IMG/VR virus record: IMGVR_UViG_3300045988_073070
Reading direction: 5' to 3' (one strand)
DNA from: a virus
Length of the DNA: 64,000 bases
Position numbers and translations under genes: made by a program. The notes beneath the pieces were generated by a model. It was not told the origin of the DNA. It was given only the letters and a program-made list of their open reading frames with translations, and did not search any database. Below are positions 6,947-58,585 of the stretch, piece by piece; within the stretch, counting starts at the first letter, position 1; every line of letters starts with the position of its first letter.

Positions 6947-8719
6947 ATGTTTAACAGTTATAGATACTCAAAAGAAAATATAAATTGTATAACAGATATG
7001 GCGGAATTATGGCAACAATTGGACGCTATTGATTTAGCAAACGCCAAGTTACGGGTTAAGAAAATGAGGACGATTGAAAAGGCAATTCGCTCTGATTCTC
7101 CTGACGATATACTACGAGCACAGAGAGCTTTGAGTAATATTCAAGCAAGAGATGAACAGACAATTGGCCCAAAGGCGTATTTCATTGACCCACTTGAATT
7201 CAATTCAAACTTGGGTTACAAAGACAAGTCATTTTCTTTGACGTACACTACGTTGAAGCGAATGTCTAAAACTCCCATTATCAATTCCATCATAAAGACA
7301 AGGAAGAATCAAGTAGCAGACTTTGCAGAGCCTCAAGAGAATAAATATCAAACGGGGTTTGTTATCCGAAAGAAGCCGAAGGGTGGAACTGAGCAGAAGA
7401 TGGATAACAAAGACAAGAAGATTGCTTTTGCTATTACTGATTTTCTTTTGAAGGGTGGTAACGTAGGAGAATGGGAACATGATGACTTCGATACCTTTAT
7501 CAGAAAGATTGTAGAAGATTCCTTGACTTATGACCAAATGACCTTTGAGATTATGCGAAATCGAAGGGGGCAAGTAGAATCGTTTATTGCAACAGATGCA
7601 GCAACATTCCGCATGGCCAACTCCTATTTTGCAAAAGACTATGACACTGCGTATTTCAAAAAAGACAAAGGACTTTGGGGAATAGATAAGGAAGATTATG
7701 GGCCAAAAATCAAGGGTTACTATCCCGCTTATGTTCAGGTTTACCAAAACATAAAGGTTGGAGAGTTTTACCCATGGGAGCTTTGTTTTGGAGTTCGCAA
7801 TCCTTCTACTTCTATTTTTGCGAATGGTTACGGATGCTCAGAACTTGAAGAGCTTATCAACGTTGTAACATCCATGCTCTGGGGAGACGAATACAACCGA
7901 AGATTTTTCAGTCAGGGTTCAGCTCCGAAGGGAATGTTGAGAGTAAAAGGAACGGTAAACGAAGCGGCACTACAACAGTTCAAGCAGCAATGGCAGTCTA
8001 TGATTACGGGAGTTATGCAAGCATGGAAAACTCCTGTGGTAAATCAAGACGTTGAATGGATTGACCTTCAAAAGAACAACCGTGATATGGAATACACGGC
8101 TTGGATGGAATATCTTATCAAGATTGCTTGTGCTATATATAATATTGACCCTGTTGAGATAGGTTGGGACATCAGCCGTTCTTCGGGCGGTGGCGGACTT
8201 TTTGAAGGAAGTCAAGAACAAAGACTTCAACACTCCAAAGACAAAGGTTTATATCCATTACTGAAATTCCTTCAAAGGAAAATCAATAAGTATATCATTG
8301 AGCAAATTCATCCAGACTTTGAGCTTGTATTTATGGGCTTGAACGGTATGACTATTGAGCAAGAACTTGAAATGGATATTAAGAAAGTTCAACACTTTGC
8401 TACAATAAATGAAATACGGGAGAAATACGAGATGAAGCCTTTGGATGATGGAGACATTATTGAAAGCACCGTATATATGCAAGCACGTAATGCAGCAGCT
8501 GGTTTGGGCGGTATGCCAGGTCAAGGGAATCCGAATCAACCTCAATCGGGCGTTCCTACTCCTGATGGAGAGGAAGAACAAGCAGAGGAACAGAATCCAT
8601 TTGATTTATATGCCGAAGGAGACGAGGAAGAAACCGAAGATGGGGACGACACTGAAAAGGCAGAAAATTCGTTTGTAAAGGCTTTTGATAGTTTCATGGA
8701 AAAAGAATTAAACAAATAA
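6947..8719 (+). CDS. Portal protein
   Basis: 590 aa, first gene of the virion block. Central segment ELEELINVVTSMLWGDEYNRRFFSQGSAPKGMLRV is portal-like. Acidic, Pro/Gly-rich C-terminus. The start may instead be the in-frame ATG at 6998. Confidence 0.65.
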   Translation: MFNSYRYSKENINCITDMAELWQQLDAIDLANAKLRVKKMRTIEKAIRSDSPDDILRAQRALSNIQARDEQTIGPKAYFIDPLEFNSNLGYKDKSFSLTYTTLKRMSKTPIINSIIKTRKNQVADFAEPQENKYQTGFVIRKKPKGGTEQKMDNKDKKIAFAITDFLLKGGNVGEWEHDDFDTFIRKIVEDSLTYDQMTFEIMRNRRGQVESFIATDAATFRMANSYFAKDYDTAYFKKDKGLWGIDKEDYGPKIKGYYPAYVQVYQNIKVGEFYPWELCFGVRNPSTSIFANGYGCSELEELINVVTSMLWGDEYNRRFFSQGSAPKGMLRVKGTVNEAALQQFKQQWQSMITGVMQAWKTPVVNQDVEWIDLQKNNRDMEYTAWMEYLIKIACAIYNIDPVEIGWDISRSSGGGGLFEGSQEQRLQHSKDKGLYPLLKFLQRKINKYIIEQIHPDFELVFMGLNGMTIEQELEMDIKKVQHFATINEIREKYEMKPLDDGDIIESTVYMQARNAAAGLGGMPGQGNPNQPQSGVPTPDGEEEQAEEQNPFDLYAEGDEEETEDGDDTEKAENSFVKAFDSFMEKELNK

Positions 8720-12807: not shown

Positions 12808-12999
12808 ATGAACAACAAGAAGGAAGTTGTAAAGAATAATCATTTCATTCCTTCTCCGTTTCCAGCTGTTACCGCTTATGAGAATGAATTTGTAAAAGTG
12901 TGGAACAATAATACGGCTGAGGCAGTTGCAGAGGTTTTGAAATATATGGCCAAAGCTACTGCCTTCGCTATTAAAGAAACGAAGGAGACAAAGAAATGA
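12808..12999 (+). CDS. Hypothetical small protein
   Basis: ORF of 63 aa. Its stop overlaps the next start (ATGA). Confidence 0.4.
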   Translation: MNNKKEVVKNNHFIPSPFPAVTAYENEFVKVWNNNTAEAVAEVLKYMAKATAFAIKETKETKK

Positions 13000-13928
13000 T
13001 ATTCAATCAGGCACAGATTCAAGATATGCTATCAATACTCAAAAGGTATGAGTTGTTGTTTATAGCAGGACAGTTGGGATTGGATTTTCTCTCTCAATCG
13101 GATAAGGATATTTTGATTGCCGCAGGGGTGGACTTGGATAAGTTCAAAAACCAAAAAGGAATAATTGAACATGCCTTTCTTTTCGGAATCCTTGCTGAAG
13201 CTATCGGAGACAAGAGAGCTCAAAATATGACTTATGCTCAATTCAAGAAGTTTCTTGCTTCGGGAAATTTCATACCATTGACCGAAGAAGAAGAATTTGC
13301 CTTGCAAACTTTGAAGAATCGGGCATACACCGATATTACGAGTTTGGGAAGTAGAATGAGAACGGGGTTGAGCAATAACATTCTACGAAACAATCAACAG
13401 CAATCGGTTTTAGTACAACGGATGATTAAGCAAAAGGCAATTAAAGCAGCCGAGCTACGAGTTGGAGCGAGAGGACTTGCGGCAGACCTTGCTGAAACGT
13501 CAAAGGATTGGGAAGTTGATTGGTTGAGAATTGCGTACTATCTTACTCACGAAGCGTTCAATTCAGGACGTGCTCAAAGTATATTAAAGAATTACGGAGC
13601 TGATGCTGAGGTTTACTTCGATGTGTACGAGGGTGCTTGTAAGCATTGTCGTGAACTTCTTTTAACCGACCCAGAGGACGTAAACAGTGAGCCGATTGTG
13701 TTTAAGCTCAAGGACATTATAGCAAACGGCAATAATATTGGTAGAAAGGTTGCTGAATGGAAAGCTACCATATCACCTATACACCCATATTGTCGTTGTA
13801 CTATTAATCACAAAAAGAAGGGTTTTGCTTGGAATCCTGACCTGCGTGCTTTCACAACTCCGATAAAGAAAGTATCTAAAAATCCAAAGTTAAAGAATGT
13901 AAAGTTAAACATAAAAGTTTCAAAGTAG
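12996..13928 (+). CDS. Head morphogenesis protein (Mu F / SPP1 gp7-like)
   Basis: C-terminal ISPIHPYCRCT matches the P-x-H-P-x-C-R-C signature of the Phage_Mu_F family. Located in the head module. Confidence 0.6.
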   Translation: MIFNQAQIQDMLSILKRYELLFIAGQLGLDFLSQSDKDILIAAGVDLDKFKNQKGIIEHAFLFGILAEAIGDKRAQNMTYAQFKKFLASGNFIPLTEEEEFALQTLKNRAYTDITSLGSRMRTGLSNNILRNNQQQSVLVQRMIKQKAIKAAELRVGARGLAADLAETSKDWEVDWLRIAYYLTHEAFNSGRAQSILKNYGADAEVYFDVYEGACKHCRELLLTDPEDVNSEPIVFKLKDIIANGNNIGRKVAEWKATISPIHPYCRCTINHKKKGFAWNPDLRAFTTPIKKVSKNPKLKNVKLNIKVSK

Positions 13929-13932
13929 TATT

Positions 13933-14889
13933 ATGGCTAAAAAGAAAATTGTACAACAGCCACCGTTCACGGTTTTAATAGAGCCGACCGAAGGCTGTAA
14001 TTTGGGGTGTTCATTTTGTGGGTTAAGAGGTATGCGTGAAAAAGGAACGAAGCCTTGGAATCATATGAGCACTAAAACTGCAAAGCGTATTGCGACCGAA
14101 ATAGCGAAAGCTGGTTGGAATAGCAAAATTGTATTCGCTCAACATGGAGAGCCAACGTTGAATCCGAAAATCTTTGAGATTGTGAAGATATTCCGAGAAG
14201 CGTTGCCAAATAGTATTTTCCATATGTACACAAATGGTTATGCGGCAAACCGAGCCGAAGACACCGAAGCGTATGTGAGCGAGTTGTTTGCGTCTGGAAT
14301 TAACAATCTTATCGTGGATTGCTATACAGACGAAGGAGATTGGAACTTCATCAATAAGTTAGAGAAGGAAAGTTGGAATATTGAATTTTACACAAAGGGA
14401 GTTCCGTTGTACACTAACAATCGCAAACCAAGAATCCTTTTACTTCCACCGATTAAGACCGACCATAAAATAACAAGAAAACTTGCTAACCATTGCGGAG
14501 CTGCCGCACCTTTGGATAAGTCTTATAACAATAAGCGTTGCGCCATGCCGTTCCGTGAGTTAGCTTTCCGATACGATGGCAACGTTTCTTTATGTTGCGA
14601 TGACTTTCGTGGGGAATATCCGATTGCTAATATCAATGATATGGGAATCGTTGAACTTTGGAATCACGAACGTTTTCAAGCAGCAAGGATTATGTTGTAT
14701 AATTACAGCCGTCATTTCAGACCATGCAGCGGTTGTACTAACATTAGTATGCGTGTAGGATTCTTGCCTGATAGTTCGGGTCAAGAGAGCCTTCCAGAAA
14801 TTACTCCAGAAATCAAGAAGTTAGCACAAAGTGTGCACAAAGATGGCTTCTTGTCTCCTATAATCATAAAAAGGAAATGGGAAAAATAA
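13933..14889 (+). CDS. Radical SAM enzyme with a SPASM/twitch-like C-terminal Cys cluster
   Basis: CX3CX2C motif in EPTEGCNLGCSFCG. GGEP-type SAM motif QHGEPTLNP. C-terminal cysteines in CAMPFRELAFRYDGNVSLCCDDF and RPCSGCTN. Confidence 0.85.
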   Translation: MAKKKIVQQPPFTVLIEPTEGCNLGCSFCGLRGMREKGTKPWNHMSTKTAKRIATEIAKAGWNSKIVFAQHGEPTLNPKIFEIVKIFREALPNSIFHMYTNGYAANRAEDTEAYVSELFASGINNLIVDCYTDEGDWNFINKLEKESWNIEFYTKGVPLYTNNRKPRILLLPPIKTDHKITRKLANHCGAAAPLDKSYNNKRCAMPFRELAFRYDGNVSLCCDDFRGEYPIANINDMGIVELWNHERFQAARIMLYNYSRHFRPCSGCTNISMRVGFLPDSSGQESLPEITPEIKKLAQSVHKDGFLSPIIIKRKWEK

Positions 14890-15563
14890 AACAAAAATAT
14901 CTCATAATAGCTCCGCATTCCGATGATGCTCTTTTTTGTTGTTCTCACGTTTTGTTCTTCCCTGAATATGAAGTTCAGGTTTTGACCGTAGAGAATGACG
15001 AGAAACGAGTTTCAGAAGATGCGAAGTTATTCGAGTTCTTAAACATTCCCTTTCATCATTTGGAGCTTGATTTTAAGGATGAAAGTTATTACGGATATAA
15101 TAAGGCATACCCGAAGGGAATAACATTGGAGCATGCTTACAAATATCTGAATGAATACTTCGGGCGTGAGACTTTGAGCGAGATAGAAGACACATTGATT
15201 GAATGGGCAAGAAAGTTTTTGAAGAAAAATAAAGGGTATAAGATTCTTGCCCCTTGGGGAGTTGGACACCCTTTTCACTTCTTTGTTCGAGAAACATTAC
15301 AATCGGGATTCTCCGATATGGACTATTATCGGGAATTTCCTCACTCATACAAGAGACGTTCTCAAGCGCAAGTTGAAGAACAAAAGAAAGATTGGTATTT
15401 AGAACGTTCAGTACCAGTGGAAGAGTTTGCTGATATTAAGTGGAAATTAGCATACAAGTTCTATCGTTCTCAATCGGGTTTACTCTTTTACGAACAGGGT
15501 TATATAAAGAAAAACCTGCCTGAAGAAATATGGCGAAGATATGATTCAGACTTACCATTTTAA
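14877..15563 (+). CDS. PIG-L / LmbE family deacetylase
   Basis: N-terminal YLIIAPHSDDALF matches the (A/P)HPDD(E) motif, and a second His motif GVGHPFH is present. The start overlaps the radical SAM gene by 13 nt. Confidence 0.7.
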   Translation: MGKIKQKYLIIAPHSDDALFCCSHVLFFPEYEVQVLTVENDEKRVSEDAKLFEFLNIPFHHLELDFKDESYYGYNKAYPKGITLEHAYKYLNEYFGRETLSEIEDTLIEWARKFLKKNKGYKILAPWGVGHPFHFFVRETLQSGFSDMDYYREFPHSYKRRSQAQVEEQKKDWYLERSVPVEEFADIKWKLAYKFYRSQSGLLFYEQGYIKKNLPEEIWRRYDSDLPF

Positions 15564-15568
15564 GGATT

Positions 15569-17008
15569 ATGAGAATACTTATAGCAGATTTTGAGATTGC
15601 TAAATACGGTGGAATCGTAGAGCATGTAACAGCGAAGGTCAAGGCATTAAAAGCTCTTGGCCACGTTGTCGATATAGCTCAATTGTCCGCTGCCGCAACA
15701 ACTCAAAAAACTTATGATAACAAAGTGAAGAAATTTGAGGATGGTACTTTCAGTGAAGGCTTGAAGGTTAATTCTCAAAATGGCGGTTATGAATACGATG
15801 AAGCAACTGGATATTGGAAGAACAATTATTATGGATTCTTTCTTCCACCCAGTAACCGTATCGGAGTATTTGAAAAGAACGCTTTGGAACGATGGCATAA
15901 TCTTGTTGAGAAGTTCGATTTGATTATGTGGAACTTTATGCCTACGAAGTCAAGTGCTTGGGGAAAGGGTGATTTTTCTTTTTGGTGGAAGTTCTATGAC
16001 CTTCCTACCGATAAGATAAAGCAAATATTCATTGCTCACGATGCGTACTTTGATGTACGTGCTTCAAACGTTACTGCCCTACGGGAGAAGATATTGTTTA
16101 TAGAGTGTGCTCATATTGCTGCATATCGTTGTTGCGAGCATCTGGGAATACCAAGAACGTTATTGTTGAATCCGAGATACCTTGAAGAAGGAGCGAGAAT
16201 GCCAATCAAGATGATGCAGAAGCGTGAAATTGACTTCTTTGCCGCTCATATATTCAAGTCTATGAAGCACGTTGACGACCTTATCAGAGCCGTACCGCAT
16301 TTCAATCAAAAATCGGAATACTCCGTACAGATAGCAGGTTCAGGAATAGAACAAGCCTATATGGTAGCTCCTACGAAATGTAAAGAGCCATACAAGATAA
16401 GTAGAAAGCGTGACCCAGATATTGATTCAGAATATCTTGGACAAAAGATTTGGGATGTAGCGGAACAATATGGCATGGAATATCTTGGTCAGATAAGCTC
16501 CGAAGAAGTAAACCGAAAGTTGAGGAACGCTAAATTTGCGATTGACCCAAGTTGGGCTGCTCATTATTCTCAATATTGTCGTACTCATATAAACGGCTTT
16601 ATTATCGAAGCTATGTTGAATGGGTGTTATCCTGTTTTGCGTGATTATAGAGGACTGATGAAGGGCGTGGACGAGGATTTATATGACCCGTTGTTTGAAA
16701 ACATCAACGCAATCATTATTCCATGGAACGCTACACCGAAGGAATTTGCGAAGGCTTTGAAGAAAGCCGAGAGAATGAGCCCAGCCAAATATTTGAAAGA
16801 TACCAGAGAGAATTTTGCTTTGGTTCACGAGTTATTCAACGCAAAGAATAACATGAAAGAAGTCATTCGACTTGTTAAGGGTGGAAAGAAACTTGTAAAC
16901 AAAGAGCTTGAAAAAGGTAAGGATTCACCAACGGTTAAGAAAATTACAAAAGAGATAATGGAAGATTTTTACCATATTGATTTACCGATTGAGTGGGAGA
17001 CTGATTAA
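15569..17008 (+). CDS. GT-B fold glycosyltransferase (GT4-like)
   Basis: N-terminal MRILIADFEIAKYGGIVEHV...LKALGHVV, and C-terminal INGFIIEAMLNGCYPVL, which matches the E-x-F-G...EAM-x-x-G-x-PV motif of Glycos_transf_1. Confidence 0.7.
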   Translation: MRILIADFEIAKYGGIVEHVTAKVKALKALGHVVDIAQLSAAATTQKTYDNKVKKFEDGTFSEGLKVNSQNGGYEYDEATGYWKNNYYGFFLPPSNRIGVFEKNALERWHNLVEKFDLIMWNFMPTKSSAWGKGDFSFWWKFYDLPTDKIKQIFIAHDAYFDVRASNVTALREKILFIECAHIAAYRCCEHLGIPRTLLLNPRYLEEGARMPIKMMQKREIDFFAAHIFKSMKHVDDLIRAVPHFNQKSEYSVQIAGSGIEQAYMVAPTKCKEPYKISRKRDPDIDSEYLGQKIWDVAEQYGMEYLGQISSEEVNRKLRNAKFAIDPSWAAHYSQYCRTHINGFIIEAMLNGCYPVLRDYRGLMKGVDEDLYDPLFENINAIIIPWNATPKEFAKALKKAERMSPAKYLKDTRENFALVHELFNAKNNMKEVIRLVKGGKKLVNKELEKGKDSPTVKKITKEIMEDFYHIDLPIEWETD

Positions 17009-17068: not shown

Positions 17069-19072
17069 ATGGACGAAATTAAAAAAGCACGCCAAGTAGG
17101 CGACCAACACCCATCAAAGCCTTGGGTGTGGACGGAGTACAAGCCTGGCAAGTTTGATTGGAGACCTATGAAGGGAAAGAAGGCAACAACGGCTTCTTCT
17201 GACGATGATTCGGGAGATGACGACAATGCTGGAGCAACCAAGAAAACTCCGTCAAAGCCTTCTGCCGCACAAGTAGCAGGAGCGAAGGCGAAAGCTGGCA
17301 AACCCATGAACTCTCAGCAACTGTTAGTTTGGGCTCAAAAGACTTCTGATGATAACCTTCTCAAAGTAGCTAACAGCAAGAACGGAAACGCTCAAATGCG
17401 AAAGATAGCGTATGACGCTTTAGAAGCAAGAGGGTTTGATATGTCGCAAGTTGATACTTCGGGAACGCTTGCCCAACTTATGAAGATGACAGGCAAAGGA
17501 AGTCCGAAAGCTCCGACAACGGGAGATGATGACGATGAGGTTGATGTAGCCGATACAAACGAAGAAGCCGAAGTTGATATTGATGACGATTCCGATGGAG
17601 ATTCAGACGGCATCAAAATTACGGAAAAGTGGTATCTTGACAAAAATGACGACCGTGTCAAAAAGATGTTCAATCTGAAAACAAAAGAAGGACGTATCAA
17701 ATACGACCAGTTTGTTTATCGGATGAAGAAAAAAGAGAAGGATTACAAAGACCCAGTTGAAGTAGTTCAGGACTTGAACGAACAATATTTGGAGTTCCTT
17801 GATAACGATGAACAACGGTTCATGATTTCAGCAGGTGGAGCTGGTATTGGTAAATCATACGGCTTCAATAAAATGGCTGAACTCCTTAATATGAAACCGT
17901 TCGAGGAAGGAGACTCACCAGGGGATGGAGATTACGACATATTTGAAGCTCCTGACGTTAATTCAGGCAAACAGCTTTTGAATATTCTCAAAGCCCATAA
18001 CGGTAAAATCATTGTATTTGATGATAACGATAAAGTGTTGAAGAGAGCCGACTGCGCAAGTGTTATGAAGAAGGCTACTGCTACAACAGGCAGACGTATC
18101 GTTGGCGACCCAGATGATATCAAACAGAACTTTGAATTCACTGGACGTATCATTATCATGACCAACAAAGACCTTTCGCAGTTATCCGAGAACGAAGACA
18201 CGAAAGCGATTATCAGCCGTGCAATGATGGTATCGGAAATCTACATGACCGTACCAGAAACAATCCAAGTAATGGAGAGCCGTTATCAGGATTATGAATT
18301 CAAACAAGCTCCAAGACTTGACGATGAAGGAGAAGATAAGAAGGAGCGTGATGAAATTTTGAGTCTTATCAAAAAGAATCAGAAGAACATTGACCCTGCT
18401 CAATTCACAACCCGTACTTTCCAAGAGATTTTGGTGAACAAAAGAAAAGTGGACAACGCAAATGAAAAGCGTTCCAATCCAGCGTTTGCTGCTCTTATCG
18501 GTACAAAGAATAAGGATTGGAAAGAAGTGGCATTGGGAGTTCTCACGAAAGCTGCTGTGAATGATATTGAAGGAAGCTCCGAAGATACTTTTGAGAAAGG
18601 AGAGGACGATGAGTTGGAGAAGGCTGAGGATATTATTTTGGGAGATGAATTCAAAAAAGGGTATTCTGCTGATGACGGAGTTGATTACACCGTAGATGAT
18701 GAAGAGGAAGAAGACATGGATGAAGTCACAAAGGCTGAACTGCTCCTTCTTGGCGATGATTACGGAGTTTTTGAAAAAGCTGAATTTTCCGAGAAACAAC
18801 GCAAAAGTTTGGCTAAGAAAAAAGAAGCCATGCCCGATGGTTCATTCCCAATTCGTAATACTTCGGATTTGAAGAACGCAATTCAGGCGGTTGGAAGAGC
18901 GAAAGACCCAGCAAAAGCGAAAGCATGGATTAAGAAACGTGCGAAAGCTCTTGGAAAGGAAGATTTGCTGCCCGACACTTGGAAAGCGAACACAAATGAC
19001 TTCTTTGGTGAAGATATGGACTTGCAAAAAGCTCAAAGCATTCTTGGAATTGGAAGCGGAATAATGGGATAA
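17069..19072 (+). CDS. Acidic protein with an AAA-like P-loop NTPase core
   Basis: Walker A ISAGGAGIGKSYG, Walker B KIIVFDDND, sensor-1-like RIIIMTNKD. Long D/E tracts. C-terminal motif MPDGSFPIRNTSDLKNAIQAVGRAKDPAKAKAWIKKRAKALG. Confidence 0.55.
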   Translation: MDEIKKARQVGDQHPSKPWVWTEYKPGKFDWRPMKGKKATTASSDDDSGDDDNAGATKKTPSKPSAAQVAGAKAKAGKPMNSQQLLVWAQKTSDDNLLKVANSKNGNAQMRKIAYDALEARGFDMSQVDTSGTLAQLMKMTGKGSPKAPTTGDDDDEVDVADTNEEAEVDIDDDSDGDSDGIKITEKWYLDKNDDRVKKMFNLKTKEGRIKYDQFVYRMKKKEKDYKDPVEVVQDLNEQYLEFLDNDEQRFMISAGGAGIGKSYGFNKMAELLNMKPFEEGDSPGDGDYDIFEAPDVNSGKQLLNILKAHNGKIIVFDDNDKVLKRADCASVMKKATATTGRRIVGDPDDIKQNFEFTGRIIIMTNKDLSQLSENEDTKAIISRAMMVSEIYMTVPETIQVMESRYQDYEFKQAPRLDDEGEDKKERDEILSLIKKNQKNIDPAQFTTRTFQEILVNKRKVDNANEKRSNPAFAALIGTKNKDWKEVALGVLTKAAVNDIEGSSEDTFEKGEDDELEKAEDIILGDEFKKGYSADDGVDYTVDDEEEEDMDEVTKAELLLLGDDYGVFEKAEFSEKQRKSLAKKKEAMPDGSFPIRNTSDLKNAIQAVGRAKDPAKAKAWIKKRAKALGKEDLLPDTWKANTNDFFGEDMDLQKAQSILGIGSGIMG

Positions 19073-19075
19073 AAT

Positions 19076-21442
19076 ATGGAAGATATAAGAAAGGCATTGG
19101 AAACAATAGCTCTTCAAAATGCGAAGGGCAAAGTGTCTGATGACCTTCTTATAAAGGCTTGCGATGCTTACAAGATTAAGTCCGAGACGTTTGACGATTC
19201 TTATGACTATCATGTATGCGTCGCAAAGTCTTTATATGACCACATAAATGGTATAGAGCCGAACGATGAAATCAATAAGGCTATCGTGCCAGGTCAAACG
19301 AAGGTTGTTGATGGAGTGGTGTATATTTACACTGCCACTCCGAACGCAAAGACACAATATGATTGGCGTGTTCTAAAACCAAAGACCGCATCAAAAGTGG
19401 GGCGTCAGGTAGATGCGGCAAAAGCCGATTCAAAACAGAAGTACGTCAATGAATTATTCCCCAATGATTTAAGCACGTTAAAGGTGATTAAAAAGTTAGG
19501 TGGAAGTACGGGAGCGCAACTTGTTGAAGATAGCAGAGGCAATCAGTACGTGATGAAGAAGGGCAGTAATACGTCCAACGAGCACGTCAAGTCCGAGTAT
19601 ATGACCAACCAGTTGTACGACCTTCTTGGTTTACGAGTTCCCGACTTTGAATTGTACGAGGAAAACGGAGAAGCAATATTGTTGTCAAAATTCATACCGA
19701 TGACCCGTATGCCGTCTGCAAAAGATTATGATGAGATGGCGAAGGGTTTTGCGGTTGATGCGTTGTTAGCTAACTGGGATATTTATCAAAACGACAATTG
19801 CTTAATTGATTCGGCTGGTAGAGTTATCCGAGTGGATAATGGCGGTGCTATGGAGTATCGTGCTCAAGGTTCAAAGAAAACTTTTGGTAAGAGTGTTACA
19901 GACTTCAACTCAATGTTGAACTACAATCCGAGTGTTCTTGGAAATCTATCGTTACAAGATAAAGTGAATCAGTTGGATGAGCTTTTGAAGAAACGTGATG
20001 ATGTAATAGGATTCTTGGTTGAAAGTAATTCTAATTTAGTAGGAGTATTTGATGGGCGTTTCAAAGACCTTGAAAATATCAAGAATCAACTTGAAGCGAA
20101 AATAAACAAGAATCAACGCAAGATTACTCCGAGAAAGCTCAAGAGTGATGCGGACATGTACAGAGAGTTATCCGAAGATGAATTGGATGCTATCTGGAAA
20201 GCTCAACAAGGTAGTGATTATTATAGCAAACTCAATGCTACGAATTACACCGTTGGTTGGGAGCTTTTGAGTGCTATTTGCGAAGAACGAGGATTCACTG
20301 CCCGTCCAGAGGTTGTAGATGAAACGGAGTATTGGAATAGAGTAAAGGGTTCAAAGTATCAAATATTTCGTGGGCTATCGTCTGGAAGCGGACATGATGC
20401 GGAATATTATGCTGATGACTTCCGATATAATGACAACTGTTTCTATGGAACTATTGGTATTCACGGTTCAGGACTTTATTTCCACGTGAACGATGGTACT
20501 GGTAATAAGGACAACACAAAGACTACTTTCAAAAATTCCGATGCTTATAAGAACGCAAGGAGTTATGCAGGTAGTTCGGGAGAAATACTTGAGTGCGCTC
20601 TTGACCCCAAAGCAACTGTTGCATTAGTTCCCGACTTGAAGAAAGAGATTCTTTCAATGGTAACATTCGACAAAGCAGCAGTTGATGCGAAGCAGCTTGA
20701 GATTGATTCTCTTAACAAGACCTTATCGCAGCAGCAGGATGACCTTAACAATATAACGGATAAGACCGAGAAGGACATCAAAACAAAGATGCACTGGGAT
20801 AACGATGTTCTTGTTATGCACCAATTGGAAATCGACAATACTGACTGGGGAGCTACGGACGCAGACGGCAATCCAGATTATCCGAGCTTTGAGGATTTTG
20901 TTGAAAAGAAGATGTTTGATTGGGTTAAGAAGAATGGCGGTACTGTTACAGAGAAGGGGAAAGGAAGCGATGTGTATATTTTGAAACTTCCCAATTCCAA
21001 AGAGCCTTTCATGATGAGCCGTTTCCAATACGAGAACAACGCAATCAAAAGAAAGAATGCGTTTTCAAAGCCGTACAACTATCCAGTGAAACGATTTTCC
21101 GATTGGTTGATGAAAGAGCATTACAACGTTATTAACAAAAAGGTTGAGAAGGCTATCGACCAAATTGGTTCAAAGGTTCAAGAGATACAAGCCGACATAA
21201 AACTCACCAAGACCGAGTTGAATACAAAGATTGGTGAGATGAACGACTTGAAGAAGACAAAAGACCCAAATGGGGATATTCTTTCTGGAATCTACGAATC
21301 AGTCAGAAAAGGAAGCAAAGAAGCTATTGGAACATACGCAGCTCTCAAGGGCATTGACGCCATAGTAGAGCCGCATGGAAACGGTGGGCCAAATTCCTTT
21401 ATGATTGTTCTTAATCGTAGTAAAGTAATTGTTAAAAGATAA
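19076..21442 (+). CDS. Large multidomain protein: atypical kinase-like domain plus ADP-ribosyltransferase-like domain
   Basis: Kinase-like string: GGSTGAQLV...YVMKKG...SEYMTNQLY...DALLANWDIYQNDNCLID...IRVDNGG. ART/PARP-like string: YQIFRGLS...GIHGSGLYFH...SSGEILECAL. Coiled-coil C-terminal third. Confidence 0.35.
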   Translation: MEDIRKALETIALQNAKGKVSDDLLIKACDAYKIKSETFDDSYDYHVCVAKSLYDHINGIEPNDEINKAIVPGQTKVVDGVVYIYTATPNAKTQYDWRVLKPKTASKVGRQVDAAKADSKQKYVNELFPNDLSTLKVIKKLGGSTGAQLVEDSRGNQYVMKKGSNTSNEHVKSEYMTNQLYDLLGLRVPDFELYEENGEAILLSKFIPMTRMPSAKDYDEMAKGFAVDALLANWDIYQNDNCLIDSAGRVIRVDNGGAMEYRAQGSKKTFGKSVTDFNSMLNYNPSVLGNLSLQDKVNQLDELLKKRDDVIGFLVESNSNLVGVFDGRFKDLENIKNQLEAKINKNQRKITPRKLKSDADMYRELSEDELDAIWKAQQGSDYYSKLNATNYTVGWELLSAICEERGFTARPEVVDETEYWNRVKGSKYQIFRGLSSGSGHDAEYYADDFRYNDNCFYGTIGIHGSGLYFHVNDGTGNKDNTKTTFKNSDAYKNARSYAGSSGEILECALDPKATVALVPDLKKEILSMVTFDKAAVDAKQLEIDSLNKTLSQQQDDLNNITDKTEKDIKTKMHWDNDVLVMHQLEIDNTDWGATDADGNPDYPSFEDFVEKKMFDWVKKNGGTVTEKGKGSDVYILKLPNSKEPFMMSRFQYENNAIKRKNAFSKPYNYPVKRFSDWLMKEHYNVINKKVEKAIDQIGSKVQEIQADIKLTKTELNTKIGEMNDLKKTKDPNGDILSGIYESVRKGSKEAIGTYAALKGIDAIVEPHGNGGPNSFMIVLNRSKVIVKR

Positions 21443-22565: not shown

Positions 22566-22602
22566 AGGTCAAGAGATTAAAAACTTTTGACCTTTTTATT
22601 TT
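22566..22602 (+). terminator. Rho-independent terminator
   Basis: AGGTCAA (22566-22572) pairs perfectly with TTGACCT (22587-22593), followed by TTTTATTTT. Confidence 0.7.
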
Positions 22603-22604
22603 AT

Positions 22605-24218
22605 ATGGCTACAAAAAGTAAAAGCAATTTGGACAAATTCACCTTCTGGTGTCCTCTGGATATTCAGAAAGCCGTTATTGACCCAGAAACAGGTCAAGAG
22701 GTAATGAGGTTGGGGGGAATAGCTTCAACGTCAGACGAGGACAGTGATGGTGAATTTCTTGACCCGAAAGGGTTTGACATAAAACCGTTAATCAATAGTG
22801 GTATGGTAAATTGGCATCATCAAGCCAAAGGACAGCCTGCTACTATTATCGGAGAGCCTTCAAAAGCAGAGATACGCCCAGAAGGACTTTATATTGAAAC
22901 TGACTTGTATCCTTCTTCTGCTATCGCACGAGATGTGTGGGATTTGGCTCAAACTCTTGAGAAAGATTCAAAGACAAGGCGGTTGGGGTATTCTATCGAA
23001 GGAAAAGTTGTAAAGCGTAAATCCAATGATAAAAAGTCTCCTGACTATAAGAAGATAGTCAAGGCAATTATTACGGGAGTAGCAATCACTCATCAACCAA
23101 AGAATCCTAAAACTTTCGCAAATATAATCAAAGGCGAGATTGATGAGGATTTTGAAGATGAAGTTGAGGAAGCATTGGACACTGAAAACGGTAAAGCTCT
23201 CAAGAAAGAATCGGTTGATAAGAAGTTAAAAAAACAAACTTTTTCAAAATCCGAAGCAATTGAGAAGCTATTCAAAGACATTCCAGGTATAGATATTGAG
23301 AAAGCAGAAAAAATTTATTTAATGACATCTAAATTTGCTAATATGAAAGGTAAAAAAAGAGTCACCGATGAAGACATCAGCAAAGCATACGAAGCTCTTG
23401 GGCTTGAGATAGAAGCTGCTGACGATATTCAGAAGGGTGATGGTTGCGCTGCTAATGGCGGTGGCACCAAAAAGCAGCCTATCAAGAAGGCTAAAAAAAC
23501 GGCAGACGATGTTGGCGATGACGGAGACGAAACGGACGAAGAAGATGAGGACGATGACGACTTCGAGGAAGCCAAAAAGGCCAAAGGTAAAATGAAAAAA
23601 GCCAAGGATGACGAAGGCGATGAAACTGATGATGACGAGCCAGACGATGAGGAAGATGATGAAGACGGAAAAGTTTTCACCAAAAAATCCAAAGGTAGCA
23701 AAATGAAGAAAGGTGGAGACGGTGCAAACCGCTTTGACCGTATCGAAAAGGCTATGGCTACGAGTTACGCAAATCAGACGCAGCTCATTCGTGCTCTTGG
23801 CGTTATGGTAAAGAACTCTGTTCAGAAAACAGAGGAAGTTCTTGCGAAGAACGATGAACTTTTGGACATTGTAAAGGCGCAGGAAGAAACTATCAGCGTA
23901 ATGTCCGAAAAGTTGGAAGAGTACGGTTCAGAGCCTTCGGGGTTCAAGTCTCACCGCAATGTTCAGGGCGTTGACCGTAGCTTTGCGAAAGCAGAGGATT
24001 CAGACATCACCAAAGGTGGTAAACGTGGACTTGGTAAAAATCAAATTCCTATCGGTAACAAAAAGGTTGTTGCAGACCTTCTTGACCAAGCGACCTTTGC
24101 AAAAGGTTATGACGAGGAATTTAGCAAGGCTTGTACTACCTACGAAGCAAGTGGTGCTCTGCCTGCAAACATCATAGCACGTATCAAGAACGAGCTTGGA
24201 TTTGAAATTGTAAAATAA
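22605..24218 (+). CDS. Prohead protease (HK97/U35-like) fused to a scaffold-like region
   Basis: N-terminus GGIASTSDEDSDGEFLDPKGFD...VNWHHQAKGQPATIIGEP...GYSIEGKV resembles prohead serine proteases. The rest is highly charged D/E/K tracts and coiled coil. Start set to ATG 22605, because the track start (TTG 22587) lies inside the terminator stem. Confidence 0.6.
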   Translation: MATKSKSNLDKFTFWCPLDIQKAVIDPETGQEVMRLGGIASTSDEDSDGEFLDPKGFDIKPLINSGMVNWHHQAKGQPATIIGEPSKAEIRPEGLYIETDLYPSSAIARDVWDLAQTLEKDSKTRRLGYSIEGKVVKRKSNDKKSPDYKKIVKAIITGVAITHQPKNPKTFANIIKGEIDEDFEDEVEEALDTENGKALKKESVDKKLKKQTFSKSEAIEKLFKDIPGIDIEKAEKIYLMTSKFANMKGKKRVTDEDISKAYEALGLEIEAADDIQKGDGCAANGGGTKKQPIKKAKKTADDVGDDGDETDEEDEDDDDFEEAKKAKGKMKKAKDDEGDETDDDEPDDEEDDEDGKVFTKKSKGSKMKKGGDGANRFDRIEKAMATSYANQTQLIRALGVMVKNSVQKTEEVLAKNDELLDIVKAQEETISVMSEKLEEYGSEPSGFKSHRNVQGVDRSFAKAEDSDITKGGKRGLGKNQIPIGNKKVVADLLDQATFAKGYDEEFSKACTTYEASGALPANIIARIKNELGFEIVK

Positions 24219-24238
24219 ACCATTTATAAAGGAAAATT

Positions 24239-25738
24239 ATGACACCTGAAAGATTAACAATTAACCTGTCTGACTACGGTTATGCCGCTCAGCAGGATGG
24301 GTATCATATCGGTATGGGTAGTTCCGAAAACGTTGACCAGCTCAACAAAGCTCTTGCTGCGGAACAGATAACTGGTATGCAAACCCAGAACATGACGGAT
24401 GCCTCTGGTGCTCCGTTGAAGGTTGAATCTTTGGAGAAAACTCTGAAGCATATCACCTTCCGTGAGAGTGATATTCGCTTGTGGAAAGACCTTCCCAAGA
24501 AACCTGCTTACAATACCGTGGAAGAGTACAATCAGCAAACTTCTTATGGTGCTAACCGTGGCGGTTGGAATCGTGAAGGGGAATTGCCTGAGGAAGAAGA
24601 TTCCATCTTTGTTCGTAGAGCGCAGTTGGTGAAATACTTGGGTGTAACCAAGTCCGTAACTCACCAGATGACGCTTGTGAACACGATGATTGGTTCTGTA
24701 ATGGAACGCACAATCAAAGATGGTACGCTTTGGATTCTCCGTACTTTGAACCAAGGTTTGTACTTCGGTAACGAAAAACTCATTCCTGAACAGTTCAATG
24801 GATTCCTTGCTCAGCAAATGCAGTCTGACGCTTGGGCTTCTTATGCGGCTTACATGGATTCGGAAAACGTTATTGACTTGCGTGGTAACGCATTGACCGA
24901 AGATGCCATTGAAAGCGGTGCCAACTCTATCGTAGAAAACTACGGATTGGGAACACAGATTTATGGCCCACCTGCTGTACTGTCCAACTTTGTGAAGAAC
25001 TTCTACGGTAACAAGTTTATCGTTCCGAATACTCCTTCAATGTCTGACGGTATCATGGGTCAGAGGGTTCAGGCTTTCGATAGCCAGTTTGGACGTATCG
25101 GATTGAACCATGACGTGTTCTTCAAGAAACTTCCTGCTAAAAATTCCGTATCACCCGCCAACTCTCAGAAAGCTCCGAACAAACCTGTTTGGGACACTAC
25201 AACTCCTGCAGCAGTTCAGAGCAATGTTACTGGAACGAAGTGGGCGAGTGAAGATGCCGGCAACGTTATGTACGCTGTATCTGCTATTAACCGTTTCGGT
25301 GAATCCGAGCTTTCAATTTACGCAACAGCGGTTGCTGCCGTTGCTAATTGCGCAATTGACTTGAAGTTTACCGATGGTGGTGGCGTGAATAAAGCAACTG
25401 CTTATCGCATCTATCGTACCAAGGTTGGTGGAAGTGCTACTGGCATGTTCTATCCGTTGTTTGAAGTTTCTTTGGACGATTTGACCCGTGGTTACGATGG
25501 CGGTGGAGCTGGTATTATCCGAGACATGAACCGCTTCTTGCCCGACACTGACCAATCAATGCTTGTACAGTTCGACAACGAGGTTGTTGAGTTTGCTCAG
25601 TTAGCTCCGCTGATGAAGATGGATTTGGCTGTTCTTTCTCCTGCCTTCCGATTCATGGTGCTTCTGTATGGAACTCCGTTCTTGTACGCTCCGAAGAAAA
25701 TGGTGCGCTTAATCAATATCGGAAAGACCATCAAATAA
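24239..25738 (+). CDS. Major capsid protein
   Basis: 499 aa, directly after the protease/scaffold gene and followed by a strong terminator. Called by position and size. Confidence 0.6.
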   Translation: MTPERLTINLSDYGYAAQQDGYHIGMGSSENVDQLNKALAAEQITGMQTQNMTDASGAPLKVESLEKTLKHITFRESDIRLWKDLPKKPAYNTVEEYNQQTSYGANRGGWNREGELPEEEDSIFVRRAQLVKYLGVTKSVTHQMTLVNTMIGSVMERTIKDGTLWILRTLNQGLYFGNEKLIPEQFNGFLAQQMQSDAWASYAAYMDSENVIDLRGNALTEDAIESGANSIVENYGLGTQIYGPPAVLSNFVKNFYGNKFIVPNTPSMSDGIMGQRVQAFDSQFGRIGLNHDVFFKKLPAKNSVSPANSQKAPNKPVWDTTTPAAVQSNVTGTKWASEDAGNVMYAVSAINRFGESELSIYATAVAAVANCAIDLKFTDGGGVNKATAYRIYRTKVGGSATGMFYPLFEVSLDDLTRGYDGGGAGIIRDMNRFLPDTDQSMLVQFDNEVVEFAQLAPLMKMDLAVLSPAFRFMVLLYGTPFLYAPKKMVRLINIGKTIK

Positions 25739-29467: not shown

Positions 29468-31090
29468 ATGGCAACAGTTGTTAATTTTCACGGTAAGGAC
29501 TATGTTGAACCTGGTTCTTATGCAGCAACGGTTTACAACCCAACTTCTGTCGTTAATGTCGCTACGTTCGGGAACGTGATGATTATTGATACGGGGTTGA
29601 GCATCAACGGCTCTTATGAATTTGCTGGCGGTTCAGGCGTACACGGAGAACTCAATCAAGGCTTAAAGTCTGTATATGAGTTCGACAATTACGAGGACTT
29701 CTTGGCATTCATGGGCGGTGGATTCGTTGGAAATCTTGCTGAAAAAATCTTTACTCCGATGGACGGAGTAGCTGGTGCGCCCAAGCTCTATTATACGAGA
29801 GCAGCAACGACCAAATGCGCAAACATAACTCTTACAATGTCATCAGGGAATACTCTGAATCTGAAATGTAAGAACGAAGGTATTGCGGGAAATGGTCAAG
29901 CTGTATCGGGCGTTTTGAAAGTAGGTTATGCATGTAAGATTATCGCAGGTGAAACTGCTGATACATTTATTTTACAAGCATACAAAGGCTCTTTTATGGG
30001 AGTGGACGAAGCAGGGGAAGCCTACGGAGCGAAAGACTTGGAGAATGCTACTCCAAACCTCATTGCTGAATCTCCTGAATGTGCTACGTTACAAGACCTG
30101 TACAATTGGGCAAGTACCAATAAACAGATGCTTGCTAATTTCGTAGTAAGTATGACGGGAGACGGAGCAACCGAAGTAGTGGCAATTGACCAAACTCTTG
30201 CTACGGGTGGTACAACCGAGTTTTTGAGCGGTAATGAATATGCTGACGTTTTGGAAGCTATTACGGAGCTTGATGTAACGTTCTTCCTTTGTACAAACAA
30301 AAATGCTTCTAATGGAAAGGGAGTTGATGCAGCTACAAACGGCAAGTTATTTACGTTCTTGAAACAAACTGCGAAGTACACCGAATTTATGGTTGTGCCT
30401 GGTGGACAAGACGATACCGACTTGTTTGGTGACGCTAATACTTCTCAGTCAATTGCGAAGTATTTCAATTCAGGACAGGTTGTTTGCGTACACGGTGCTC
30501 CGCAGGTTACGAGAAAAGACCAAAACGGAACGAAGGATTTGCCGACCATTTATTTGGCTGCGGCTATCGTAGGACTTAATGCGGGTATGGCTGCTCAAAC
30601 TCCTTTGACATTCAAACGAGTTGGTTACCAAAATTTCGTTTACGACTTGAAACAAAGGGAACGTGTGAGAGCTTTACAGGCAGGTATCATGCACGTTCGG
30701 AACGTAGCAGGATATTGGTGCGTGAACCAAGGGATTACCACTTTGCTGGAGAACAAGAAAACTATTGCAGACGATGGTCAAAGTTTTGAGCTTTCAATCG
30801 AGCTTATCAAGGCTCAGTTGAACAAAGAACTTATCATTGAAGGACAAACGAGATTCACGGGTAACACCGCTGCTCAAGCAAGTCCTCAATCGGTTAAGAA
30901 CTTTACAGAGACCAAACTGCAATCGTTGGTTGCATATCCTGGCAATGATAATTTGCTTATCAGTTGGAAGAACGTAAAAGTTGTTGCTAAAAACAGCGAC
31001 TACTTTATCACGTATGACTTTACTCCGAACGTTCCTGTGAATAAGACGTTCTTTATTGGTAACATTCTTGACTTCTACGTTGAAGCATAA
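29468..31090 (+). CDS. Tail sheath protein
   Basis: 540 aa, followed by a 166-aa tube-sized gene, a terminator, two small chaperone-sized ORFs and the tape measure. This is the canonical gene order of contractile-tailed phages. Confidence 0.6.
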   Translation: MATVVNFHGKDYVEPGSYAATVYNPTSVVNVATFGNVMIIDTGLSINGSYEFAGGSGVHGELNQGLKSVYEFDNYEDFLAFMGGGFVGNLAEKIFTPMDGVAGAPKLYYTRAATTKCANITLTMSSGNTLNLKCKNEGIAGNGQAVSGVLKVGYACKIIAGETADTFILQAYKGSFMGVDEAGEAYGAKDLENATPNLIAESPECATLQDLYNWASTNKQMLANFVVSMTGDGATEVVAIDQTLATGGTTEFLSGNEYADVLEAITELDVTFFLCTNKNASNGKGVDAATNGKLFTFLKQTAKYTEFMVVPGGQDDTDLFGDANTSQSIAKYFNSGQVVCVHGAPQVTRKDQNGTKDLPTIYLAAAIVGLNAGMAAQTPLTFKRVGYQNFVYDLKQRERVRALQAGIMHVRNVAGYWCVNQGITTLLENKKTIADDGQSFELSIELIKAQLNKELIIEGQTRFTGNTAAQASPQSVKNFTETKLQSLVAYPGNDNLLISWKNVKVVAKNSDYFITYDFTPNVPVNKTFFIGNILDFYVEA

Positions 31091-57385: not shown

Positions 57386-58585
57386 ATGGAAATTCCGAAA
57401 AACAATTGCTTTTTTCCCGATTATGGAGTGGCGAAAGTAGAAACGTTTGGGATGTTGTACCCTGTAATTAATGATTACATCTTAACCAACAAACAAAAAG
57501 AAGAAAGCCGAGCAGGAGATGTAAAGGAACTGCTGGACGTCAAAACAATCATAACCAATCCTTATCAACGTTGCGTTGGCGGTTATGGTAGAGACATCAA
57601 TGTATTCTTTCTTCTTGCCGAAGCTATGTGGATAGCTGTTGGAAGAAAAGATGTAGAGTTTTTGGAAATATTCAATTCACGTATGAAGGACTTCAGTGAT
57701 GACGGAAAGACTTTCCACGCACCATACGGATTCCGATTGCGTCATTGGGGTATTCGTACCGAAGACAAATATGAAAGCGGAGTTAATGCCGCTCAAGGAT
57801 ATGACCAAGTAGCAGATGCAATACGGCTCTTGTCCGAGAATCATAACACACGTCAGGTAGTTATGGCAATATGGAATCCGAGTTTTGACTTGGGAGCGAA
57901 AAGCAAGGACATTCCTTGTAACGACCTTGTGATGTTGAAGATTCGTGATGGTAAGATGGTCACCACAATTCAGAATCGGAGTAATGACCTTCATTGGGGA
58001 TTGCCGACAAATATATTCCAATTCTCTTTCTTGACCGAGATTATGGCGACTTGTCTTGGTATCGAATTGGGAACACAAACACACAACTCTCAAAGTCTTC
58101 ATATTTATGATTGGAACGGTACGGCAAAGAAGATGCAAGAAATCTTCAAGGCTTCGGGAACGGGGCATTCACTTTATGAAGCTACGCCAGCCGAAGCGAA
58201 ACCGATGGACTTTGCTTTCAATCATGAGGTTGCAATTAACCGTCTCCGTGAAGTAGATTCACATTTGAATATCGTTATCGAAAATCTTCTCAGGATAAAG
58301 AATGGAGAAGATGAGATACAAGACGAAATTAAGCAGCTACAAGACTTTTCAACCTTCTTCTTTAATACTTACCAGCTCCTGAAAATATACGTGCTCTACA
58401 AGCATAAAAACAAGCTGGCTAAAACGGATATTGAAAAGGATGCTATTCGCAAAACAGCGATAGCCGAAATTGAACTGTTGGAAGCCGAAGGAGCAAAAGA
58501 TTGGGACATGGCAATACTTGCAAAGAACTTCTTTCACGCAAGGTTAAGTAAACCAATGAAGCATAAATATCTTGGGAAGCTATGA
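57386..58585 (+). CDS. Thymidylate synthase superfamily enzyme, probably a deoxypyrimidine-monophosphate hydroxymethylase
   Basis: TS-fold motifs FHAPYGFRLRHWG, NTRQVVMAIWNP, DIPCND (catalytic Cys) and NRSNDLHWGLPTNIFQF, then SLHIY. The sequence is divergent and carries a helical C-terminal extension of about 100 aa. Confidence 0.7.
   Translation: MEIPKNNCFFPDYGVAKVETFGMLYPVINDYILTNKQKEESRAGDVKELLDVKTIITNPYQRCVGGYGRDINVFFLLAEAMWIAVGRKDVEFLEIFNSRMKDFSDDGKTFHAPYGFRLRHWGIRTEDKYESGVNAAQGYDQVADAIRLLSENHNTRQVVMAIWNPSFDLGAKSKDIPCNDLVMLKIRDGKMVTTIQNRSNDLHWGLPTNIFQFSFLTEIMATCLGIELGTQTHNSQSLHIYDWNGTAKKMQEIFKASGTGHSLYEATPAEAKPMDFAFNHEVAINRLREVDSHLNIVIENLLRIKNGEDEIQDEIKQLQDFSTFFFNTYQLLKIYVLYKHKNKLAKTDIEKDAIRKTAIAEIELLEAEGAKDWDMAILAKNFFHARLSKPMKHKYLGKL

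Follow-up and report, generated by a model that had tools for sequence, protein, structure and literature searches.

The locus described here raises the question of why a phage carries genes for a radical S-adenosylmethionine (SAM) protein, a deacetylase and a glycosyltransferase (GT) in the midst of its head genes, and on which molecule the products of these genes act. It lies in a stretch of 64,000 nucleotides of the IMG/VR virus record IMGVR_UViG_3300045988_073070 (hereafter the window), which belongs to the genome of an uncultured myovirus of approximately 98.5 kb. An earlier note on this DNA, made from the letters alone, had recognized the three consecutive genes (here called the cassette) and had named hydroxymethyl-pyrimidine DNA, a virion protein or a host envelope molecule as candidate targets. 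The genomic contexts found in related loci now favor the first of these candidates, and the target of the cassette is most likely DNA. With a probability of about 0.6, the cassette may be regarded as a late-expressed accessory module of DNA hypermodification, which would place an amino sugar on the 5-hydroxymethyl-uracil (5-hmU) of the phage's own DNA.

The evidence for a DNA target comes from the genes that accompany relatives of the deacetylase. Two related loci, L250 and L252, are collinear at approximately 82% nucleotide identity, and their MuF-like, radical SAM and deacetylase proteins are identical in 94%, 87% and 80% of amino acids, respectively. Their homology is lost exactly where the deacetylase gene ends and returns at p667, the gene that follows the cassette; between these two points a TET-associated glycosyltransferase (TAGT; PF20691, 51.8 bits), a member of a DNA-glycosylating family, is encoded in L250 and a GT-B enzyme in L252. 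Judged from this alignment, the change from GT-B to TAGT in loci of the L250 type is a clean non-orthologous displacement. In the same slot, deacetylase and TAGT are fused into one protein in P0248, L071 and L194/195 (TAGT 40.9 bits). Moreover, in L199 and L200 a homolog of the deacetylase is followed by a stand-alone TAGT (72.3 bits) within a replication module containing a clamp loader and AAA_24. L196 pairs a deacetylase homolog with a full-length ortholog of the window GT (29% identity, 3e-63), and the gene after this pair carries the helical domain of the 5-hydroxymethyl-deoxyuridine (5-hmdU) DNA kinase (HMUDK_hel, 92.4 bits). As far as gene neighborhood can tell, these four independent contexts, that is the swap, the fusions, the replication module and the HMUDK_hel neighbor, tie the deacetylase family to the modification of DNA bases. 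In T6-like phages, the presumed role of TAGT is to add to the glucosyl-hydroxymethylcytosine of the DNA (PMC13390438), and phage glycosyltransferases have been shown to install hexose, N-acetylhexosamine (HexNAc) or heptose on 5-hydroxymethylcytosine (bioRxiv 2023.12.21.572611). According to the latter study, the preferred partners of GT-B types are thymidylate-synthase homologs, and some of the clusters adjoin structural genes.

The location of the cassette inside a block of head genes, between the portal gene on one side and the genes for prohead protease and major capsid protein (22587-25738) on the other, was confirmed. The coordinates, the 13-nt overlap and the 5-nt gap reported in the earlier note for the open reading frames (ORFs) were matched exactly on re-check. 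A gap of 4 nt separates the cassette from the MuF-like gene; the overlap and the 5-nt gap follow within it, and 60 nt lie between its end and p667. All ORFs of at least 120 aa in the 64-kb window, unless nested in longer ones, are on the + strand, the GC skew is above zero in each 2-kb bin and the cumulative skew climbs monotonically; no tRNA genes were found in the window. In line with the claim that the three genes have no promoter or terminator of their own, between 12.7 and 19.2 kb there were no terminator-like sites on the + strand, and sigma-70-like matches stayed at the level of shuffled sequences (14 versus 14.2 expected) in a scan whose reach did not extend to Bacteroidota-type promoters. 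In every related locus the MuF-like gene directly precedes the cassette; its label rests on a weak match to SPP1 gp7 (E = 0.14) and an HPYCRC motif. Directly 3' of the cassette, p667 is kept across the clade; its product matches only phrog_1250, a family of unknown function, and contains a Walker A (GGAGIGKS) and a Walker B-like motif (IIVFDDND). The Walker A motif prompted a comparison with the 5-hmdU DNA kinase, and this identity was rejected, as p667 has no similarity to the HMUDK_hel protein. The second large gene, p788, is a neighbor of the cassette throughout the clade and has no family match. Public annotations of the proteins of the window are generic, and a nucleotide search of the three-gene block against 50,697 deposited phage genomes gave no match.

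Table 1. Features of the window and of related loci (coordinates of related loci are preceded by the locus name).
Feature	Position	Strand	Remarks
BtrN-like radical SAM gene	13933-14889	+	318 aa; optional cassette member
LmbE/PIG-L-family deacetylase gene	14877-15563	+	228 aa; core member
GT-B-fold (GT4-like) glycosyltransferase gene	15569-17008	+	479 aa; core member
MuF-like gene	12996-13928	+	310 aa; 5' boundary of cassette
p667	17069-19072	+	667 aa; P-loop GGAGIGKS, acidic low-complexity stretches; 3' boundary of cassette
p788	19076-21442		788 aa; second large gene after cassette; long acidic low-complexity stretches
Portal gene	6947-8719
Prohead protease gene	22587-24218
Major capsid gene	24239-25738		46% identical to Bacteroides phages DAC19-23; related to SPO1/SP-10-type capsids
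Tail sheath gene	29468-31090
Thymidylate-synthase (TS) homolog	57386-58585	+	399 aa; Pfam Thymidylat_synt 4e-24
YfbR-like HD 5'-deoxynucleotidase	62132-62773	+	Pfam YfbR-like 1.5e-11, phrog_7076; adjoins Pol III alpha gene
Metal-site-altered deacetylases	L250:8880-9560; also L251, L253-255, L258-261, L263, L264, L266, L275
NUMOD3 insertions	L005:6687-7364, L017:6596-7357, L023, L025, L027, L052, L066, L078, L079

The position amid the head genes, from portal and MuF-like gene to protease and capsid, with which the cassette is apparently co-transcribed, would also suit glycosylation of virion proteins. In that case, HexNAc would be attached by the GT to proteins of the capsid, the tail or the head interior during assembly, the glycan would be tailored by the two other enzymes, and the surface properties of the virion or its immune recognition would change. 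Phage glycosyltransferases encoded near structural genes have been associated with capsid glycosylation in mycobacteriophages (PMC11256854), and non-DNA acceptors are common for GT4-like enzymes. However, DNA-glycosylation clusters are likewise reported beside structural genes (bioRxiv 2023.12.21.572611), and the presence of the cassette is not matched by a change in any acceptor protein, MuF and p667 being the same with or without it. Moreover, the TAGT swap, the deacetylase-TAGT pair in the replication module and the neighbor with the 5-hmdU DNA-kinase domain are left unexplained by a protein target, which we consider unlikely.

The composition of the cassette in related loci bears on its role as a DNA-modification module. 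A search based on the deacetylase yielded 81 loci, in which deacetylase and GT genes are adjacent almost throughout, down to approximately 36% identity; without exception the pair is flanked by the MuF-like gene and homologs of p667/p788, and a radical SAM gene is present in a minority. A search based on MuF, which is unbiased with respect to the cassette, yielded 66 loci with both flanks; as these were not dereplicated, the counts are descriptive. The deacetylase is present in 63 of them, a GT-B enzyme in 48 and another GT (TAGT) in 15, while the radical SAM gene is found in 33, accompanied by GT-B in 18 and present in all 15 loci with TAGT. The whole cassette is absent in three of the 66 loci, where MuF is followed directly by p667 (e.g., L222 and L265); such relatives are known from contigs of 10-17 kb. 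In P0243, radical SAM protein and deacetylase are fused. Gene order deviates in L037 and L198; the latter has the order deacetylase, GT, radical SAM, and a gene for a 139-aa protein with a Sequestin domain (PF21825; 2242-2661) is located between its MuF-like and deacetylase genes. The conserved unit is the deacetylase together with a glycosyltransferase, the radical SAM gene is optional and the cassette as a whole is dispensable. The linkage of the trio in related phages, on which the earlier note had made its proposal depend, holds for the pair of deacetylase and GT (63/66) and does not extend to an obligate trio. The three loci lacking the cassette fit an accessory with a counter-defense role and not a gene of morphogenesis.

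Further genes are found in the same interval, and the additional ORFs within the cassette encode for the most part NUMOD3-type homing endonucleases. An ORF of approximately 215-250 aa with NUMOD3 repeats and a GIY-YIG-like N-terminus is inserted repeatedly between deacetylase and GT or just 5' of the deacetylase (Table 1). As a candidate pathway enzyme, the recurring ORF of approximately 230 aa between deacetylase and GT was rejected, being a NUMOD3-type homing endonuclease. A gene for an FkbM-type methyltransferase (PF05050) separates the radical SAM gene from the deacetylase-TAGT fusion in the cassettes of L194 (6866-7939), L195 (3745-4818) and L072 (4549-5613), and suggests O-methylation of the sugar as an extra tailoring step. 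An N6/N4 DNA methyltransferase (PF01555, 5e-48) is encoded between MuF and p667 in two loci (L032:2199-2960 and L037:7672-8379); two further loci (L038:4405-4977 and L070:4237-4809) have a gene for a protein with an InPase domain (PF18823, 2e-47) there. The MuF-p667 interval looks like a hotspot for accessory, possibly anti-defense, genes.

The variability of the region between MuF and the protease, in which relatives carry domains of polyvalent or ejected proteins (InPase, N6/N4 DNA methylase), together with the large size and acidic character of the flanking proteins, is also in line with a speculative role as packaged cargo. The three proteins would in that case be delivered with the DNA into the next host, and their early target there would be host DNA, incoming DNA or some other molecule of the host. 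An Fe-S radical SAM enzyme is, however, an improbable content of a capsid, and the proposal concerns the timing of action and is compatible with a DNA target. Delivery as cargo is judged very improbable.

The chemistry that the DNA-modification module could perform depends on the families of its three enzymes. For the deacetylase, the PIG-L assignment was upheld in the form of a divergent member, on the basis of transitive profile evidence and of the viral structure library BFVD, since its own Pfam score and the Foldseek search of the PDB fall short. Alone, the window protein scores 11.5 bits against PIG-L (PF02585), under the cut-off of 28.2, and 36 of its 39 homologs match this family weakly. 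A profile made from phage proteins only retrieved 338 proteins from 1.84 billion representative proteins. The alignment that includes the distant matches holds 15 bona fide members of PF02585 (best 1.6e-13), and the extended profile matches the LmbE-family enzymes of solved structure Dbv21 (3e-14) and Orf2* (3e-13) over the full length. The phage-only profile found nothing significant among PDB sequences; compared directly with Dbv21 in hhalign, it gave E = 1.3e-4 and a probability of 54%, both motifs being aligned (PHLDD and HPDH). In the phage family these motifs, already pointed out in the earlier note as APHSDDA and GHPFH, are PHSDD (H14, D16, D17) and GHPxH (H131, H134); they are invariant in the 39 homologs, and the TAGT-fused deacetylases of P0248 and L071 retain both. 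In LmbE/PIG-L enzymes such as MshB and Orf2*, which have a Rossmann-like fold, the zinc site is formed by the His and Asp of an N-terminal (A/P)H(P/S)DD motif together with a His of an HPxH motif. The AlphaFold2 (AF2) model of the deacetylase has a predicted local distance difference test (pLDDT) score of 93.6. Its top 50 Foldseek matches in the PDB comprise generic Rossmann folds (CARF, SDR, 2-epimerase) with a template modeling (TM) score of approximately 0.35 and no LmbE protein. In BFVD, the only significant matches outside the family itself are annotated LmbE/GlcNAc-PI deacetylases (6e-8 with TM 0.60-0.69, 4e-5 and 3e-4). The 'LmbE-like protein' of Campylobacter virus IBB35 also matches the window deacetylase structurally. 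A tblastn search with the deacetylase against deposited phage records gave nothing, and together with the negative searches for the block and the GT this means that no cultured relative came to light. On the profile and fold matches, the protein is accepted as a divergent branch of LmbE/PIG-L with an intact metal site.

The radical SAM protein belongs to its superfamily by the CX3CX2C motif and by a score above the gathering threshold for Radical_SAM (PF04055; 50.6 bits, 3e-13, cut-off 29.5), and it also exceeds the cut-off for SPASM (PF13186; 45.2 bits, 1e-11). The NCBIfam twitch model N_Twi_rSAM matches it at 3.8e-11. The likeness to BtrN that had been noticed proved sound, as BtrN is its sole sequence match in the PDB (E = 9e-10), with the core and the C-terminal domain covered and the cysteines of the auxiliary cluster aligned; identity to BtrN is nonetheless low, and the NCBIfam scores are far under any equivalog cut-off. 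In 19 homologs of 45-98% identity, the CX3CX2C cysteines (C22/C26/C29) are invariant, as are C203, C221, C222, C265 and C268 (19/19), and C188 is found in 17 of 19. The conserved cysteines suffice for one auxiliary cluster, whereas approximately seven to eight are needed for a two-cluster SPASM protein. Because there are five invariant C-terminal cysteines (with C188 in 17/19), the protein looks like a BtrN-like twitch enzyme with a single auxiliary Fe-S cluster; of the original description as radical SAM/SPASM, the family, the motif and the C-terminal cysteine cluster stand, and the full SPASM domain does not. Matches to 'BtrN proteins' of a Campylobacter phage were considered as the same system and rejected, the cluster being a different one with no annotated GT or LmbE gene nearby. 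These genes, in phage vB_CjeM_WX1 (L276, record 107727-122464), encode proteins 25% identical to the window radical SAM protein and are accompanied by at least three further radical SAM genes, an amidinotransferase and an aminotransferase.

The GT-B/GT4-like assignment of the glycosyltransferase was sustained by weaker evidence. In Pfam, the protein scores 21.2 bits against Glycos_transf_1 (PF00534), for which the cut-off is 26.4, and Glyco_trans_1_4 is likewise under its cut-off, both with an E-value of 2e-4. The AF2 model, built from a shallow alignment (identities of at least 76%), is poor (pLDDT 63). All 31 significant Foldseek matches in the PDB are GT-B enzymes, but with TM of approximately 0.2 from this pLDDT-63 model; they include PimA, the T4 alpha-glucosyltransferase with DNA, 7qsg and BshA. 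The same four structures have been reported as templates for phage DNA glycosyltransferases as well (PMC13326640). The sequence 'NGFIIEAMLNGCYPV' resembles a donor-site motif of the EX7E type and deviates from strict EX7E. By the modeled fold, membership of the GT-B class is supported, and specificity is not.

These family assignments also bear on the possibility that the product is a small molecule or a host-envelope glycoconjugate, i.e., that a glucosamine-containing metabolite or part of the envelope is made or remodeled in order to manipulate the host or to exclude other phages. It is general knowledge that the pairing of a GT4 enzyme with a PIG-L deacetylase follows the logic of MshA/MshB, BshA/BshB and BtrM/BtrD. 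BshA is among the fold matches of the GT, the radical SAM protein comes closest to BtrN among solved structures, and one source labels the GT as a 'glycosyltransferase involved in cell wall biosynthesis'. However, neither 2-deoxy-scyllo-inosose (2-DOI) synthase nor an aminotransferase, Cys ligase or acetyltransferase was found in approximately 45 ORFs of the window scanned with Pfam or PHROGs, several ORFs of the structural region lying outside the Pfam scan. No signal or membrane segment was noticed in the three proteins, for which no formal test was made, and the genes beside them in relatives are concerned with DNA modification. In our estimation, a small molecule or an envelope component is an improbable product. 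The parallel drawn in the earlier note with aminoglycoside, mycothiol and bacillithiol biosynthesis appears to be a similarity of logic and not a membership of these pathways. The order of sugar transfer followed by deacetylation is a plausible one.

For a modification of DNA, a hydroxyl acceptor is needed, and the TS homolog encoded in the window is its probable source. The TS-like and HD genes mentioned in the earlier note do exist (Table 1), and the 'Nmad1' and 'aGPT-like' genes cited with them have no Pfam or PHROGs support near the TS homolog. The best PDB profile match of the TS homolog is the CMP hydroxymethylase MilA (1.5e-20, 76.8 bits), the best thymidylate synthase reaching 72.3 bits. 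Expressed at reference positions, its C178 corresponds to the catalytic C146, N209 to N177 and D201 to D169, and D175 occupies the position of L143. All four residues are invariant throughout the family of TS homologs, and D175 aligns to an Asp of MilA. According to the published diagnostic criteria (PMC13326640), Asn at N177 indicates uracil over cytosine, Asp at D169 speaks against a 5-hydroxy-dCMP synthase, and an acidic residue at the L143 position points to a hydroxymethylase. Because of its residues at the positions of C146, N177, D169 and L143, the TS homolog is predicted to be a dUMP hydroxymethylase. By analogy with hmU-containing phages, the HD 5'-deoxynucleotidase possibly depletes canonical dTMP. 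As for the co-occurrence of the cassette with the TS-like gene, a point raised in the earlier note, the TS homolog is encoded on 21 of the 22 contigs that carry the cassette and measure at least 85 kb, one TAGT-type contig among them.

The proposed mechanism of DNA hypermodification would comprise four steps. As predicted from sequence signatures, the TS homolog would make 5-hydroxymethyl-dUMP, which would enter the phage DNA. Late in infection, the GT-B enzyme may move an N-acetylhexosamine, probably N-acetylglucosamine (GlcNAc) from the UDP-GlcNAc of the host, to the hydroxymethyl group of 5-hmU in DNA. Such timing agrees with the norm described in PMC13326640, where groups are transferred to DNA hydroxyls late in infection, up to packaging. 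Given its family and intact metal site, the LmbE/PIG-L enzyme would then strip the acetyl group, and the resulting glucosaminyl-oxymethyl-uracil would expose a protonatable amine in the major groove. Where the radical SAM enzyme is present, as in the window phage, a position of the amino sugar may, by analogy with BtrN, be oxidized or epimerized, and the fusion of radical SAM protein and deacetylase in P0243 backs this step. The product we infer is glucosaminyl-5-hydroxymethyl-dU tailored further by the radical SAM enzyme. The host is presumed to be anaerobic, since the capsid protein is closest to those of Bacteroides phages. The likely benefit of such a base is resistance to restriction and other DNA-targeting defenses, and partial neutralization of charge, aiding packaging, is a possible one. 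In its broadest form, the proposal would be that a widespread clade of uncultured myoviruses of approximately 100 kb replaces thymine with cationic glucosaminyl-oxymethyl-uracil made by the GT and the LmbE enzyme, with a BtrN-like oxidation or epimerization of the DNA-bound sugar in approximately half of the lineages; this form is tentative and is given somewhat less than an even chance.

Several observations weigh against an amino sugar on the 5-hmU of phage DNA as the product of the cassette. The deacetylase of the L250 type is of full length, and its metal site is altered from PHSDD to SQAGD and from GHPFH to GHPFN, with H14, D16 and H134 lost. Therefore, deacetylation is not universal and the chemistry differs by lineage; the altered protein is probably a pseudo-enzyme with a non-catalytic role. 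TAGT of T6 is thought to act on a sugar attached to DNA and not on the base (PMC13390438). The assignment of the TS homolog as a hydroxymethylase leans on few diagnostic residues, and the margin by which MilA exceeds thymidylate synthase (76.8 versus 72.3 bits) is slight. Since cassette and TS homolog alike may belong to the near-core gene set of the clade, their co-occurrence discriminates little. The distance between them is approximately 40 kb, the cassette being inside the head module. No gene of sugar-nucleotide biosynthesis was found among the window ORFs scanned. In tblastn, the window GT had no detectable relative in the 50,697 deposited phage genomes, and its connection with DNA would run through the TAGT displacement and through the neighbors of the cassette in relatives.

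A comparison with known systems places the proposed DNA-modification module beside phage DNA glycosylation, as represented by the T4 alpha- and beta-glucosyltransferases, T6 TAGT, the metavirome GT clusters of Pyle et al. (bioRxiv 2023.12.21.572611) and the arabinosylation of RB69 and DLP3 (PMC13326640). Shared features are a TS homolog providing a hydroxylated pyrimidine, which is predicted here, and a post-replicative sugar transfer by a GT-B or TAGT enzyme, which would apply here as well; HexNAc on DNA is documented in those systems. In contrast to them, the predicted acceptor here is 5-hmU and not a derivative of cytosine, and an LmbE/PIG-L deacetylase and a BtrN-like radical SAM protein are encoded, neither of which is part of any system found. 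The clusters for thymidine-linked oligosaccharides in Carin-5, YerA41 and SP-15 (PMC12686479) share a sugar-hypermodified thymidine, maybe with GlcNAc, as well as glycosyltransferases and a predicted GlcNAc N-deacetylase. They differ in that this deacetylase, which is uncharacterized, is annotated as the polysaccharide-deacetylase type, the linker is dihydroxypentyl-phosphate and a radical SAM enzyme is lacking. The thymidine hypermodification of phage M6 (gp53, with 5-hmdU DNA kinase (5-HMUDK) and aGPT-Pplase; PMC8989533) has in common with the present proposal a post-replicative modification of 5-hmdU and tailoring by a radical SAM enzyme. In M6, however, the radical SAM isomerase resembles spore photoproduct lyase (SPL) and acts on an appended amino acid, whereas the window protein is of the BtrN/twitch type. 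No 5-HMUDK or aGPT-Pplase was detectable with Pfam or PHROGs among the window ORFs scanned. M6-like traits are seen in relatives, namely the gene with the 5-HMUDK helical domain beside deacetylase and GT in L196, and a weakly SPL-like radical SAM protein in L199. The latter (L199:8010-9350) is a protein of 446 aa with weak matches to Radical_SAM (5e-5) and spore-photoproduct-lyase (3e-3), encoded just 5' of the deacetylase-TAGT pair.

Outside phages, the three enzyme families and the logic of GlcNAc transfer followed by deacetylation are shared with BtrM/BtrD/BtrN of 2-deoxystreptamine biosynthesis (butirosin/neomycin) and with GtfA/B plus Orf2*/Dbv21 of teicoplanin. Among solved structures, BtrN stands nearest to the window radical SAM protein, and Dbv21 and Orf2* stand nearest to the deacetylase profile. 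The differences consist in an identity of at most approximately 25%, in a viral context with DNA-modification neighbors, and in a locus without 2-DOI synthase, aminotransferase and acyltransferase. The statement that no characterized phage system with this trio is known agrees with the literature search, which found no LmbE-type deacetylase or BtrN-like radical SAM enzyme described in phage DNA modification. DNA glycosylation by phages is itself already known, and it is these two components that have no description in the literature searched.

Summarizing, if the proposed modification of 5-hmU is true, it would represent the first amino-sugar nucleobase in any DNA, and the enzymes would be the first LmbE-family enzyme and the first sugar-tailoring radical SAM enzyme to act on DNA, which would add DNA, a polymer, to the substrates of two well-studied families, the LmbE/PIG-L deacetylases and the twitch radical SAM dehydrogenases. 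Base glycosylation ranks among the main routes by which phages escape restriction, CRISPR and other DNA-targeting defenses, and it is a source of enzymes for DNA labeling and epigenetic sequencing. In an amino-sugar base, a bulky glycan would be united with a positive charge such as that of polyamine- or amino-alkyl-thymidines. The modular cassette, with GT-B or TAGT and with or without the radical SAM enzyme and the FkbM methyltransferase, is a natural set of variants for reconstitution. Moreover, distinctive nuclease resistance, packaging behavior and sequencing artifacts would be predicted in an abundant group of uncultured phages.

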